64,000 nt of DNA from Spironucleus salmonicida. Lineage: Eukaryota. Under the pieces are notes generated by a model. It was not told where the DNA came from. It searched no databases and was given only the letters and a program-made list of their open reading frames with translations. The position numbers and the translations under genes were made by a program. The stretch covers positions 1,674,001-1,738,000 of the forward strand of contig NC_090596.1 in the NCBI RefSeq assembly GCF_000497125.1. Reading direction: 5' to 3'. Shown here piece after piece: positions 18,089 to 33,736 of this stretch (position 1 is the stretch's first letter; every line of letters begins with the position of its first letter).

Positions 18089-21000
18089 TCACTTCATTCC
18101 ACTACGACGTGCCGCAGAAACTTTCAGTGCACTTCCTATTCCTTTTGTACCAACCGTGCTATAAAATGAACTCATAAGATCATTTTTTGGAAGCTTTCCT
18201 TACCGTATTCCAAGTAAGTCTTATCTAAATGTTGACTATCTTCTATTTTAAATTAACTGAGTCTCGAAAAATTTATTGCCATAACCCTATAATATTCCCA
18301 GCTATTCGATCATGTCCTTTAATGTATCTTTACTTTATGCATCTCTATATAATTAGACTTATTCGATTTCACCAGTCATTAATTCTACTGCCTATTAAGA
18401 TAACATCATACTAGTTAGACTATCGTCCTATAACTTAGACTATTAAGATCTTAGCATTATTTCAGATAATAACTAGTCGTTTAACTTTTGTTTATCTGTA
18501 ATACCTGTGTAATTTTTATTAGGCGATACCAGTTTTTATTGTTAATTCATTTCTTCATTATGTTTATTATATACAATGCCATTTAAATTATTGAATGATT
18601 CAACATCCTATTGTAAATTTTATTATGTATCCTTATAGCTAGAAAATTCTAATGAATCAGGTCTTGAAACGAGTTCATTTAAGATTTTATCGTCAGATAA
18701 TGTATTATTATCTCCTTATTCTTCTAATTTATCTTCTCTAATATTTAAATTTGCCACGGTATCGCTTTTAGCAACTTTTCCAAGTAATTTACTTAAAAAT
18801 GATTTCTTAGCAATATTATTACTAGCAATTTCGGCTAAATTTTTCTCGCTGGCGTCAGAAGTGGTAGCAGTTTAACCATTCTGGTTCTTACCACTGGCAT
18901 CAGAAGTGGTAGCAGTTTAACCATTCTGGTTCTTACCACTGGCGTCAGAAGTGGTAGCAGTTTAACCATTCTGGTTCTTACCACTGGCATCAGAAGTGGT
19001 AGCAGTTTAACCATTCTGGTTCTTACCACTGGCATCAGAAGTGGTAGCAGTTTAACCATTCTGGTTCTTACCACTGGCATCAGAAGTGGTAGCAGTTTAA
19101 CCATTCTGGTTCTTACCACTGGCATCAGAAGTGGTAGCAGTTTAACCATTCTGGTTCTTACCACTGGCATCAGAAGTGGTAGCAGTTTAACCATTCTGGT
19201 TCTTACCACTGGCATCAGAAGTGGTAGCAGTTTAACCATTCTGGTTCTTACCACTGGCATCAGAAGTGGTAGCAGTTTAACCATTCTGGTTCTTACCATT
19301 GGTGTCAGAAGCGGCAGTATTAATATCTTTTTACGAATTCACAGTCATAACTATATCAGATTAGTCTAAACTGGACACAGTGTTTTTAATACCACTAACT
19401 TCACATTCTAATTCATACAATTCATCTTACAATTTTTATTTTAATTACGCATCTTACTCTAAAGATTATAATTGACCTGAATAAATCGTTGTGGTTTCTA
19501 GTTATTTTTATTCAAGTGTAATTTATGGTTTCGATAGCTATTCAACGGTAACCAAATTTTAATTTCCTGTCTACTCTTACATATTTTCTTGTTATTACTT
19601 TTACAAAATATCCTCTGAAATTTAATTGTTAATAATATCTTTTTGAATATTATTCTAAATACTAGGAATTTCAGGCTAATGTTAGTTGACCTTACTTTAT
19701 ACTTATTACATAGATGGCGATTTTAACACATTTTTCTTACTGCTTTTAGAATCATCATTTATACCTGAAATATCCGGAGACTTCATATCTTAAACAAGCT
19801 ATGATGAATCTTTCCTAGATGGTGACTTTGGTACTTTAGTGAGCCCTAATTCTTCAAATACTATTTTATTAATAATTTATTGCGAAATTTTATTCTTTTT
19901 AACTACAAAATTTTCAGAAATTCTTTTAATCAAATCTTAAACAATTTTTTCTTAGTCAAATTTACTTTTTATTAATTAAATATTCGCATACTTTGGATTT
20001 TATTTTTATATTCTTATCATTACTGGCAAAATAATATCCTTATAATTAATTGCTAAAGGAGAATCATCAATAAATTAAATCGAATCTTATTATTGCGCCT
20101 ATAAAATAGGTGATTAAATATCTACTTAAGGTTCGTGTAAATTTAAATCTTCTTATTTGAGTGATTCTTTTAAAGGTTATTTAGGTGGTCGTTGGGGTAA
20201 ATTAAGATCAATCGGTACTCTTTTCTTTTAGTTTTCATTTAATTCTAAATCAACACTATTTTCTTTTTCAGTATCAGTATCATAATACTCTATAATCTCC
20301 TCTTCGATAATATCTTCTGTAACGTATTCTCCATCTTCGTCATCATTATCTCCACGAACATGAAATTCAATAAATTCATACTAATCCACTTTATTATTAG
20401 GATCATTATCTTCAAATATTTCTACATGTTGTGAAATATCCTAAACTTATTCACCATCATGTGTTTCATCTTTAATTAACTTTTAATGCTATGAAGATAT
20501 TACCGGATCTGATACGGTCTAGATAGGTTAATAATTTGAAATATTAGTATGATCCATAATTCTTTAAGTGTCAATAATACTATTGTTCTTCGTAATATCA
20601 ATTCGTGAGTTATCAGTTCTAACTGATTCAATAATTGGTAGGCCACTAAGATCAATTTAGTTGCTTAATAATTTCTGTTCGATATCATCAAAAACTTTAA
20701 ATTGTTTTTCGCTCTCCTCTTATAAGTTTTAAAGCATTTACCCTAAATTTTTACTAGAAAATGAATCCAAACTTGAAGATGTATCAGATTTATTTTGTGA
20801 AGTCATTGACTACATGCTATTTGGGTTTGTTGGTTTAATAGCTTACATTAAAGCTGATAATCCTCCAACCTAATAAAGGCAACATTTTTAAAAATAATCT
20901 ACCATTTAATCAATCTTTACACTCAATAAATCCATTAAACTCATATTCTTATTTACCTCATCTTGAAGCTCAATTTCTAATACTTCACATATTTTGGCTT

Positions 21001-23143
21001 CCGAAATTTCTAAAAAATTAATTTAAGTATCCAAAAGGTGATGCATTTATGATAAAAATCTAGTTTCTGTTGATTTTGTAGAAAAGAATAACCGTATTGA
21101 ATCAATTTGGGAAAAATCTAAATTAAACTCATCTCTAACTGATCCAAATAGTTATATTAATTTAGGATTAATAAAAGAAATCTCATTATACAAAAATTCT
21201 ACACTACCTAAGTCAAAATTAGCGCCTTATTAAGAAATTCTAATATTATCAACGTTAACACGCATAAAATTAACTAATTCTTCATCTAAGTGAGAAATTT
21301 CTTCATCTGGAATATTAATATTAATGCATAATAAAATATACTCATCAATTGTTCTCATAATTTTATAATGATTAAAATAAAGCTTGAACTTATCTTAAAC
21401 TTCTCTAATTTATACATTGCTTAACATAACATCAATCGGTTTCATTGACTTGCTTAATGTTTCAAACGTTTATGACTTATTTACAATGCTTGTTAAAACC
21501 CTACTAGCTGATTCAGCTTTCGGACTAAATAAACTATTCTGCATAAAATTTTCTATATTTGGTATTCTAGTTTAAATTTTTCGTTTGCTTACATCATTAG
21601 TATCAAAATGTACTGATTTATTCATGGATTTATCCATTTCTTTAATACTTAAACTCTGATTGACTTTTCTGTCTTATATCTTATCAATTTTTGGTAGGTG
21701 TAAGGTTCCAAAATTCTCACCACAATATATGCTAACTGGTGCTGTATTTTAGCTAGTATCTTCATTATACGTATAAACTTGATCTTCAGCATCTAACATA
21801 ACTAGCCAATTAGGAGAGGATAAAATTGATGTCATCTTCGCTCCAGCGTTTGGATGAACTATTACCTTGGAATGAGCAAGTGAAAACCCATTCTTTTCCT
21901 ACTCAATTCGGAATACTGTTAACAAATTAGATTCTGTGGAACCAACAAATGCATATCTATTACATTACGATAAAGTGATGATATCAGGTCTATAATCAAC
22001 TTTCGCAGCGGCCATAAACTTTTTAGTTGAGAACAAAAATACATTATTCTCTGTAAAAACACTGGTTGGCAGAGAGCTAATAAGTGAACTATCCATTTAC
22101 TTTTCTGGAATATTTATGAATGATTCATTTAGTACAGGATTGAAAGAAATAGAATAAATGAACAAAAAATGTTCGTCTCCCGATTTTGAAGATTTGAACT
22201 AAATAGGCTAAAATTAACTAAACAAAACATCTTAACCTAATTTTAACTATTCTGGTACAAATTATAAAGGAAACAAATTTTTTAAATATGAATAACGCGA
22301 CTTGATCTATCCTAAGTTAGGACTTAATTCGCGCAAATTAAGGAAATTTTATTATTTTCCAGGCATAAAATATTCCCAAATATCTATTCCTGCATATCTA
22401 TCATATACTAGCAATACACCGCTTTTATTAGGTTAAACTGATTGCAAAATACCACTCGTTTTACTAAAAATTGCACCTCTTCCATCGATACAAATTTTTT
22501 ATGGTTCCAGCATCCTTGAATGCTATACACTCGTATGTTTGAACTTCTAAATCGGCTGATGGATTTCTGAATAATTGAACACACAAATTGATTGTGTTTT
22601 ACGATCGAACCCAACAAGATAATCAAAAGATATAGGACAGATGACTGACATATCTTTAAACTAGTCAATAAATCGTGTCATTTATGGCAGCTCATTTGGG
22701 CGTAGCGCGAACTAAAAATTTTGGATTTGGTTATCTTTAGAAACTTAAAACTAAAAATATTTAAGTGGTATTCTGAAAAGCTAATTGTCTACTCCATTAC
22801 TAATAGTAACGTAGAATGCCTCTTGCTTTGTTTAACGTGCAAAATGAACTGCTTAGATTTTACATTGGTCAACTATTGGTGTATGAAATTCAATTATGAA
22901 GTCCTTTGTTGCCAAGGGGGTTTGAACAAGTGCTTAGGATGACTAGATTTGTTTAGTTGCTAAAGAACGCTAGAGTGCCCTAACATACAATTTGTTATCT
23001 TGATAGTGAATAATAAATTCTGAAGTTGTAGTTGTATGTACTGGTGATATATCTATTAATAGCATTGGTTTATAGTTTTATACCAACTATGAATTGGTGA
23101 TTTACTGCAATCTTGACATAATTGACTCCGCAGTCTTACTCAT
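18089..23143 (-). CDS. Very large protein (1684 aa): beta-rich N-terminus, helical middle, long acidic/low-complexity tail with 15-aa repeats
   Basis: MSKTAESIMS... to RRSGMK-TGA. Frame checked at the 5' end, the middle, the repeat and the 3' end. Confidence 0.75.
18851..19320 (-). repeat. Coding minisatellite: 10 x 45 nt plus a degenerate partial copy, encoding (SGKNQNGQTATTSDA)n
   Basis: Unit on + is ggcatcagaagtggtagcagtttaaccattctggttcttaccact, spanning 18851-19300. Copies at 18851 and 18941 have ggcgtc. Confidence 0.98.
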
Positions 23144-31856: not shown

Positions 31857-32969
31857 TCATTATGTTACAATGCTAACTACATCCTCATCAGATAATACAT
31901 GTGCTTTGCCGACATGCTATCCCATATGCTTAGTACTTCTACCCCATACAACTGCATATTTCATTTTCGCAAGTAGATCCTTATGGATATTAAGCACAAA
32001 TTATTCCACTGTTGGTATCTGACGTCTTGTTCTTAAAATAACAGGTTCTTCTAAATCAGCTTATCCACCACGTGGACGTGTATATACTCTAATAATACCT
32101 AATTTTTACCATATTTTTTCTAATAATTCGTCAAGATTCCAACTTTGCTTGCATGATATAGGTACCCAATTGGGAAGTGAATCAAATAGATCCAATTCCT
32201 AAATTGTGATAGAGTCTATTTTATTCACAACATATAAAGCAGGTAAATATGCTCTGTTTCCTTCTACGACGTCAATTAATTCGTCTACAGTAGAATCAGG
32301 CAAATTAACATAGACATCTGCATTAAATATTTTATATTCTGCTAAAATAGATGCTACTAAGGCATCATTTAAATATTTAAGTTCGCAATTTGTTTATAAT
32401 GCTACTCCACCTTTATCACGCCTCTCAACTCTGATATCTGGTACACGCTTATTAAGTCTGATACCAAAACCTTCTAATTCATATTCAATTTTTCTCTTCA
32501 TTTCTAAACTCTTAGTAGCATCTAAGATAATTAACAGTAAATCAGAAGTTCTGGCAGTGGCAATAACCTATCTACCCTTACCTCTATTATCCTTAGCACC
32601 CTCTATAATACCTGGTAAATCTACCATCTAAATTTTTGTATCCTTATAGAAAATAGTTCCTGGTATGGCAGTAAGAGTTGTAAATTCATAAGCTGCGACT
32701 TCTGATTTTGCAGCAGTGAGCTTAACTAATAAAGAAGATTTACCAACAGAAGGAAAACCAACTAAACCAACTCTGGCATGACCAGTCTTTTATACGTCGA
32801 AGCCAACACCACCAGATCCAGATTTTTTAGTAGTTTACTAAATAAGGTCATTTCTTAGCTAAGCTAATCTTGCTTTTAATCTACCTACATGAAATTCTGT
32901 GGCCTTATTCTTTTGTGTGCGATTAATCTCATCTTCAATGTCTTGAATCCTACGCATAGTGTCAGACAT
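31857..32969 (-). CDS. DRG1: Developmentally regulated GTP-binding protein, DRG1-like (370 aa)
   Basis: [36 protein letters not shown] and a C-terminal TGS domain ending DEDVV. Confidence 0.95.
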
Positions 32970-33025: not shown

Positions 33026-33649
33026 ATGAAAATGAGCAAAGAAATAGAAATTAGATAGATTTTATAACATGAAGTACTTACTGATTTTTGTGAAAACAAG
33101 TACCAATTTGATTATTTATATAGTCTCAGAAATGAAATATAATTAATCAGATTTGATTTGTAAAATTTTAATCAAGTGTTAAAGAATGATTTAAAAAAGG
33201 AATAAAATTCAATATTATGTTTGATTCAATAAGTGAATGATGTATTTACTTGTTTTGTAGGAAAATAGAAACAGGTATAGCATCAAAACAAAAATGACGA
33301 AGAATTTTATCTTAGAAAAATTTATGAATTGTAGAAAAATGTACCTAAAGTGCTTATTGACTTCAAAAACTAAACTCGCTTCAATACTTAGTCTCATATT
33401 CATATAATTAAAGAATGTAATTTACTCCGGCAATAAATTTAAATCGTATAAAAAACTCTAGAATAATAAATTAATTTTCAGTAATTATCCTAGTCAATTA
33501 TTCCATATATTAAGGCTGTTGGCAAAGCAGCTTCTTAGTTGAATACTAAACCCTAGTTTATCAATTAAGAAATAAACAATCTATTATTATTAATTAAAAA
33601 TTTAAATATAGAAAATCAAATTTTAATTCAGTAACTAATAGATAAGTGA
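33026..33649 (+). CDS. Hypothetical coiled-coil protein (207 aa)
   Basis: Open frame MKMSKEIEIR...QQLIDK-TGA. Confidence 0.7.
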
Positions 33650-33651
33650 AA

Positions 33652-33736
33652 CGCCATCCAGCCAGAGTTGAACTGGGGGTCATAGACCAAACTGGAGTTG
33701 AAATCCAGCGCGAAGACCGCTTCACCACAAGATGGC
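33652..33736 (-). tRNA. tRNA-Sec (anticodon UCA)
   Basis: GCCATCTTG TG GTGAAG CGGT CTTCGC GCTGGA TTTCAAC TCCAGT TT GGTC TAT GACC C CCAG TTCAACT CTGG CTGGATGGC G. This folds to a 9-bp acceptor (one U-U), 6-bp D stem with 4-nt loop, UCA anticodon, long variable arm, 4-bp T stem and G73, the eukaryotic 9/4 tRNA-Sec fold. Confidence 0.95.

Follow-up and report, generated by a model that had tools for sequence, protein, structure and literature searches.

The gene for a selenocysteine (Sec) tRNA, found in a genome whose only stop codon is UGA, raises the question of how Spironucleus salmonicida tells stop from Sec, given that UGA is at the same time its poly(A) signal and that its 3' UTRs measure about 13 nt; this has been stated as unknown since 2010 (PMC2874811). 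The tRNA alone is old news. It was published in 2007 together with the remark that all 64 codons may be sense and with an average 3' UTR length of 13.2 nt (PMC1805757), and the same tRNA and remark are also found in PMC2874811 (2010). The latter paper reported SelW with a UGA, gave UGA a role as poly(A) signal besides those of stop and Sec codon, and did not detect a canonical SECIS in S. barkhanus ESTs. Sec pathway enzymes, a NifS-SelD fusion, three SelW genes and an AGTGA signal were listed in 2014 (PMC3916229). The tRNA-Sec and the 64-codon point are already known from these three papers; the claim of a sequence-only reading of the locus that all 64 codons can be sense repeats this conclusion and is not a discovery. 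In the literature searched, SECIS and Spironucleus were named together only in PMC1805757 and PMC2874811, and supplements or subscription papers might hold a prior report. Spironucleus is not named in the available main text of PMC5330540 and PMC4561486, the available text of PMC9509377 is without the term 'seleno', and that of PMC2746813 holds nothing on metamonads. As far as these searches reach, the candidate SECIS presented here and its tie to polyadenylation are new.

ARAGORN called a tRNA-SeC(tca) on the minus strand at positions 33652-33736 of the window, the whole 64-kb stretch of DNA that was analyzed, and this was the sole tRNA called within it. The Rfam model of tRNA-Sec, RF01852, scored the element at 49.9 bits (E 4.7e-7), 2.9 bits above its gathering score of 47, and this was the sole Rfam match in the window. 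The sequence-only reading had proposed an 85-nt tRNA-Sec with a 9/4 fold, a UCA anticodon, G73 and a 4-bp variable arm, and scoring with a tRNA-Sec model as a check; the RF01852 match bears the element out, and its strand, not given there, is minus. With 53 of 667 candidates scored, which makes the counts minimum values, at least six genome matches to RF01852 were found, and only the tRNA-Sec was over the cut-off; the other five were four Ser tRNAs and one Leu tRNA. The minus strand folds as a cloverleaf with a z of -2.4 (2 of 200 shuffles), and CCA is not encoded.

The stems, read from the sequence, are 9/6/6/4/4 for acceptor, D, anticodon, variable and T. The 9-nt 5' strand of the acceptor stem (33728-33736) pairs with 33653-33661, and the nine positions comprise seven Watson-Crick pairs, one U.G at 5b and one U.U at U6.U67 (numbering after PMC7609411). 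Rfam alignment and stem reading placed the D arm, a 6-bp stem with a 4-nt loop containing GG, at 33710-33725 and the variable arm, 4 bp with a 3-nt loop, at 33678-33688; the latter is shorter than the Rfam consensus, with seven RF01852 model positions deleted. The UCA anticodon (33699-33701; ARAGORN and stem reading) lies in the 7-nt loop of an anticodon arm (33691-33709) whose stem has 6 bp, and stem reading placed the T arm with its 4-bp stem at 33662-33676 and the discriminator G73 at 33652. Of the features of eukaryotic tRNA-Sec (RF01852), the 9/4 acceptor/T fold (13 bp), the 6-bp D-stem with 4-nt D-loop, the UCA anticodon, G73 and U6:U67 are present, as are the invariant G18, G19, U33, U55, C61 and C66 when compared by eye, in our own numbering, with the list in PMC5330540. 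The U.U pair had been taken as divergent in the sequence-only reading; it is the eighth pair, U6:U67, and is conserved in the tRNA-Sec of vertebrates, Drosophila and C. elegans (PMC7609411). The tRNA differs from its eukaryotic counterparts in its length of 85 nt before CCA, compared to the 90-101 nt given in PMC5330540, in its 4-bp variable stem and in having the wobble at 5b and not at 5a. Position 5a:67b is a C-G pair in place of the non-Watson-Crick pair of animals, which is needed in vertebrates and is an animal feature, not a family-wide one (PMC7609411). That 33652-33736 on the minus strand is a tRNA-Sec is close to certain. Judged by organism, fold and the 64-codon conclusion, it is presumably the gene previously reported for S. 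salmonicida.

A 207-codon open reading frame without a Pfam match (33026-33649, plus strand) stops 2 nt short of the tRNA-Sec 3' end on the opposite strand; a transcript of this frame, if there is one, would run antisense to the tRNA in its 3' UTR. The tRNA-Sec trailer has three T only, and short trailers were also seen on some Ser tRNAs.

The combination of tRNA-Sec with UGA as the only stop, as given in the sequence-only reading, was supported by the genes around and beyond the locus. The Pfam/NCBIfam match to SepSecS contains 25 in-frame TAA/TAG and no TGA, and that to SelD 12 and none. Table-6 translations were identical to database proteins in seven of eight cases; six of these are named Spironucleus salmonicida and the seventh is the DRG GTPase of the window. 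This DRG/Rbg1 gene, the neighbour of the tRNA-Sec gene at 31857-32969 on the minus strand, has 13 in-frame TAA/TAG and a TGA stop, and in our reading of the alignment three of 12 aligned TAA/TAG stand opposite Gln of yeast Rbg1. A large gene of the window (18089-23143) contains a tandem repeat at 18547-19299 (minus strand), with a 16-residue repeat in an alternative frame.

Genes for Sec synthesis and delivery, which the sequence-only reading had suggested searching for, were found in part. SepSecS (contig C3; 261 bits), eEFSec (contig C6; archaeal SelB and human eEFSec as its top PDB matches) and a NifS-SelD fusion (contig C1) are all intact, with open frames. A search for the L7Ae family gave seven hits which we take, partly by recognition, to be RPL7A, Snu13 (2), RPS12 (2), NHP2 and RPL30; SBP2 was not among these seven, and a divergent SBP2 could have escaped the scan. 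The two Snu13-like paralogs (L023 and L024) are candidates for binding the hairpin described below. Two profile searches for PSTK gave no match to TIGR03575 and only KTI12 with PF08433, but PSTK is annotated as EST42607.1 in supplement file 3 of PMC6397501. Neither a SECIS-binding protein nor the word 'SECIS' occurs among the annotation entries listed from that supplement. As far as gene content can tell, the Sec pathway is present in the genome.

The genome contains three SelW genes reading C-Q-S-UGA (CxxU motif), located at C9:331464-331691 (plus strand), C9:360633-360860 (an identical inverted copy) and C4:620989-621216 (minus strand). In its CxxU motif, its length of 75 aa and its scores above the curated cut-offs of PF10262 and TIGR02174, the product resembles the Selenoprotein W/Rdx family, and the three copies are as published. 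The database product P0002 (NCBI) differs in lacking the first 13 residues including Sec and in starting at Met14. The annotated product P0021 of Hexamita inflata likewise starts at a Met behind CxxU; this species also has a Cys form of SelW (P0019), and P0021 may be an unrecognised Sec form. The two C9 loci (L007/L008, C9:329970-362354) form an inverted duplication, identical where compared, with a cluster of four tRNA genes and the locus L048 between them.

The 3' side of the SelW genes holds a hairpin of about 57 nt. Its GUGA(C/U) core starts 17 nt behind the terminal UGA and 212 nt behind the Sec UGA, and is followed by an arm of 11 nt, AA, a mini-helix of 2 bp capped by a GNRA loop, a second arm of 10 nt and, last, UGAG. 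In the upper stem eight of nine positions pair, in the lower five of five, two of the latter as G.U. The topology is present in the MFE fold, and the folding energy is no better than that of shuffles (z -0.3 to -1.0). With an upper stem of 7-15 bp, an unpaired AA and a mini-helix as criteria (PMC11227280), the RUGA...GA tandem core, upper stem, unpaired AA and mini-helix of a type-II SECIS were found in the SelW hairpin. The hairpin also resembles the type-II SECIS (RF00031, GUGA variant) in the Y.U pair above the core, followed in SelW by G-C, in the AA bulge and apical mini-helix, and probably in its place in the 3' UTR. A G-C pair above the core is a determinant for SBP2 (PMC1874613). The spacing fits as well, with the Sec UGA beyond and the stop UGA within the minimum of 51-111 nt cited for mammals (PMC3316567).

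Other features set it apart from a type-II SECIS. The SelW hairpin was not scored by RF00031 at E<=10; over the genome this model gave two weak matches (E 2.2), neither at SelW, and Rfam at E<=10 on the SelW loci L007, L009 and L010 gave one chance miRNA match only. At about 57 nt the hairpin seems to fill the whole 66-nt SelW 3' UTR, pairing across its lower internal loop can produce a standard k-turn with a 3-nt bulge, its 3' UGA appears to be a poly(A) signal, and no SBP2 was found among the seven L7Ae hits. Closing this loop in a rat SECIS left almost no Sec insertion (cited in PMC1874613), which counts against the SECIS reading. Closeness to the stop, escape from the standard search and the lack of a detectable SBP2, here among the seven L7Ae hits, are shared with the eSECIS-like elements of Asgard archaea (PMC11227280), from which the SelW hairpin differs in its eukaryotic host, polyadenylated mRNA and single stop. 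This likeness is anatomical, and descent is not claimed.

The SelW element itself was the source of the hairpin patterns and thresholds used in the scans. A first genome scan gave 20 matches compared to 19 in the control, and both helices formed in only four of the 20, the three SelW sites and C9:350460-350501 (L048). The chance that one of the other 11-16 pattern matches forms both helices was 0.7-1%. A second pattern had been widened after L048 was seen and so gives no independent test of it; among its 16 matches (control 30) only the same four formed both helices. A pattern scan over 323,386 bases gave three passing sites, all SelW. Model R1, built from the three near-identical SelW hairpins and run on 18 sources, found SelW and a truncated paralog only, and not L048; divergent SECIS elements elsewhere in the genome may have escaped. 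Six identical copies of a repeat (L035-L038, L050, L051; C3:1472699-1494748, C34) match the SECIS pattern and pair poorly (6/9 and 3/5). The C4 and C9 SelW genes differ at 1 of 66 positions in the UTR and 12 of 228 in the coding region; their flanks show 19 differences in 60 positions upstream and 13 in 202 downstream. Conservation between the paralogs alone therefore argues only weakly for the hairpin. The truncated copy (L010:1501-1750, G000:C4:613446-613684), about 7 kb from the C4 gene, is without a Sec codon and carries a decayed hairpin with six of nine upper pairs.

The single-copy L048 element follows a frame that opens with an ATG and meets a UGA at codon 5, which lies 175 nt from the core; after 46 further codons come UGAs at codons 52 and 55. 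The frame has no other ATG, and its codon-5 UGA lies in an ordinary stop-like context. With in-frame and off-frame windows as the sole reference sets, its 46 codons have a coding score of 10.1, which 34% of the former and 1% of the latter attain. The putative product (L048:1313-1546, G000:C9:350272-350505) would begin with a hydrophobic stretch and carry a Cys-UGA close to its C-terminal side. No homolog of this product (P0016) was found by word search or Pfam, and the profile library gave one low-complexity bacterial repeat protein. An alternative frame (P0017) was rejected, as it scores non-coding (-2.5) and has no Pfam match. From its sequence, the chances that the L048 frame is a new small selenoprotein gene are about evenly balanced.

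A relative offered a comparison across species. P0005 and P0008, ENA proteins about 80% identical to SelW, have W at both UGA positions and then run on, while their cluster mates stop at the same residue. We infer that both were called with TGA read as Trp, in which case their tails would mirror the 3' UTR. The sequence of P0008 allows the same core 18 nt behind the stop, AA after 11 nt, a mini-helix and UGAG; its amino acids force nine of the 15 pairs and rule out none, and one pair would be U-A where S. salmonicida has C-G. With P0008's own score as the threshold, S. salmonicida DNA as the control and 27 geometries allowed, this score was reached by none of 172,568 stop-free windows, 1,284 of them motif-compatible. 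P0005 fits the 5' half of the hairpin, by eye, up to the mini-helix loop. The cross-species evidence thus consists of back-translated peptides, not DNA. A metagenome scan for SelW loci returned one locus (L030), a false positive without a SelW frame. Taken together, the SelW hairpin is very probably a SECIS.

The 3' end of the SelW mRNA was examined in contigs from four runs of one study, whose RNA status was guessed; these contigs show presence only, so that the uncovered stretches L007:1393-1485 and 1796-2200 carry no weight. Contigs of all four runs cover SelW into the hairpin, and in three of the four the 3' pieces listed run into adapter at 1773. One contig of one run (X1) ends in 8 A behind SelW L007:1788, where the genome goes on with T. 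This end gives the 66-nt 3' UTR and lies 10 nt after the 3' UGA of the hairpin. A second poly(A) end (L007:1357-1371) lies 12 nt after a plus-strand UGA without a clear ATG-led frame and may belong to an antisense or pseudogene transcript.

The context of UGA was compared at 32 ordinary stops, taken from 14 of 16 loci (two were dropped, with no stop in range) and from 18 window ORFs of our choice. All 32 have A or T at -2 (A 27, T 5), and the 12 nt behind them contain 5.8 T on average. In SelW, the Sec UGA has C at -2 and two T, the stop C and three T, and the 3' UGA of the hairpin A and eight T. SelW of the relative ends in Gln, giving A at -2, so the C at the S. salmonicida SelW stop is not conserved. 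Another poly(A) end in these contigs also follows a UGA with C at -2, and both observations speak against a strict -2 rule. As a poly(A) determinant, the U-rich tract may outweigh the -2 base. That the 3' UGA of the hairpin doubles as the SelW poly(A) signal is somewhat better than an even proposition.

A genuine tRNA-Sec could also coexist with a SelW hairpin of another function, a box C/D-type k-turn bound by the Snu13 protein in mRNA stability or 3' processing, with recoding left to something else. The hairpin core resembles the box C/box D consensus, and the L048 element overlaps a SNORD27 match, below threshold with 17.1 bits against a gathering score of 52 (E 5.3). The closed 3-nt bulge favours Snu13p over SBP2 (PMC1874613); the two Snu13-like genes and the lack of SBP2 among the seven L7Ae hits point the same way. 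An AA 11 nt above the core and a mini-helix are nevertheless SECIS anatomy, which is kept in the relative, and the element was found behind exactly the CxxU-UGA genes and has decayed in the copy without a Sec codon. This alternative was judged improbable.

Lower still is the probability that Sec is specified within the coding region, by a hairpin about 30 nt after the Sec UGA acting as a bacterial-like or Sec redefinition element. Both versions of SelW do fold in this way (z -2.6 in L009 and -0.6 in L007), and SelD is of bacterial origin according to PMC2874811. The elongation factor, however, is closest to archaeal/eukaryotic SelB, the Gly codon of the inner 3' arm is replaced by Gln in P0003-P0008, and no such fold was seen behind the UGA of the L048 candidate gene (z 0.1). 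It is very improbable that the tRNA survives as a relic or suppresses UGA in general, with SelW made from the Met after the UGA as annotated in P0002. For this reading speak that annotation, the small margin over the cut-off, the short variable arm and the lack of the non-Watson-Crick 5a:67b pair required in vertebrates (PMC7609411). Against it, G73 and the 9/4 fold are intact, the SepSecS, eEFSec and SelD frames are open, and UGA stands at the CxxU position in two species where a Hexamita inflata homolog has Cys.

The explanation preferred here, a functional tRNA-Sec, UGA as stop by default, the SelW hairpin as recoding SECIS and a shifted poly(A) signal, is likely as a whole. By analogy with the enzyme families, SerRS, PSTK, SepSecS and NifS-SelD would load the tRNA-Sec with serine, phosphorylate it and turn it into Sec, and eEFSec would deliver it. 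Termination would be the default at UGA; Sec would be inserted only where the mRNA carries a compact type-II SECIS about 200 nt further downstream. By the mammalian spacing rule, the Sec UGA of SelW would be recoded and the terminal UGA would lie too close to the core. In Spironucleus, the stop UGA normally doubles as poly(A) signal, and the tail starts about 13 nt behind it. For SelW, as the one poly(A) contig and the sequence context suggest, this signal would be shifted to the UGA of the hairpin 3' strand, so that the SECIS stays in the mRNA. The sequence-only reading held that the cell must decide at every UGA and has no unambiguous stop. This was overstated: a candidate SECIS was found at only three, perhaps four, genes, and termination would therefore be the default, as in any Sec-using eukaryote. 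It was right that the recoding signal could not be identified from the window; the candidate sits elsewhere in the genome.

Reading of the SECIS without SBP2 is a tentative proposal, with the chances somewhat against it. A more far-reaching and rather doubtful version is that one 57-nt RNA separates the stop, Sec and poly(A) roles of UGA: a minimal SECIS would be the whole 3' UTR, its own 3' UGA would be the poly(A) signal, its closed k-turn would be read without SBP2 by a Snu13-family protein or eEFSec, and the same kind of element would mark a fourth, lineage-specific small selenoprotein from G000:C9:350272 onward.

The hairpin offers a concrete answer to the question of 2010, and one that is testable by point mutations. 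If it is a SECIS, it is a very compact one, missed by the standard model, which couples 3' end formation to recoding; a SECIS may then work without SBP2, and the SelW annotation would be corrected. The hairpin further suggests that the selenoproteomes of diplomonads are under-counted.
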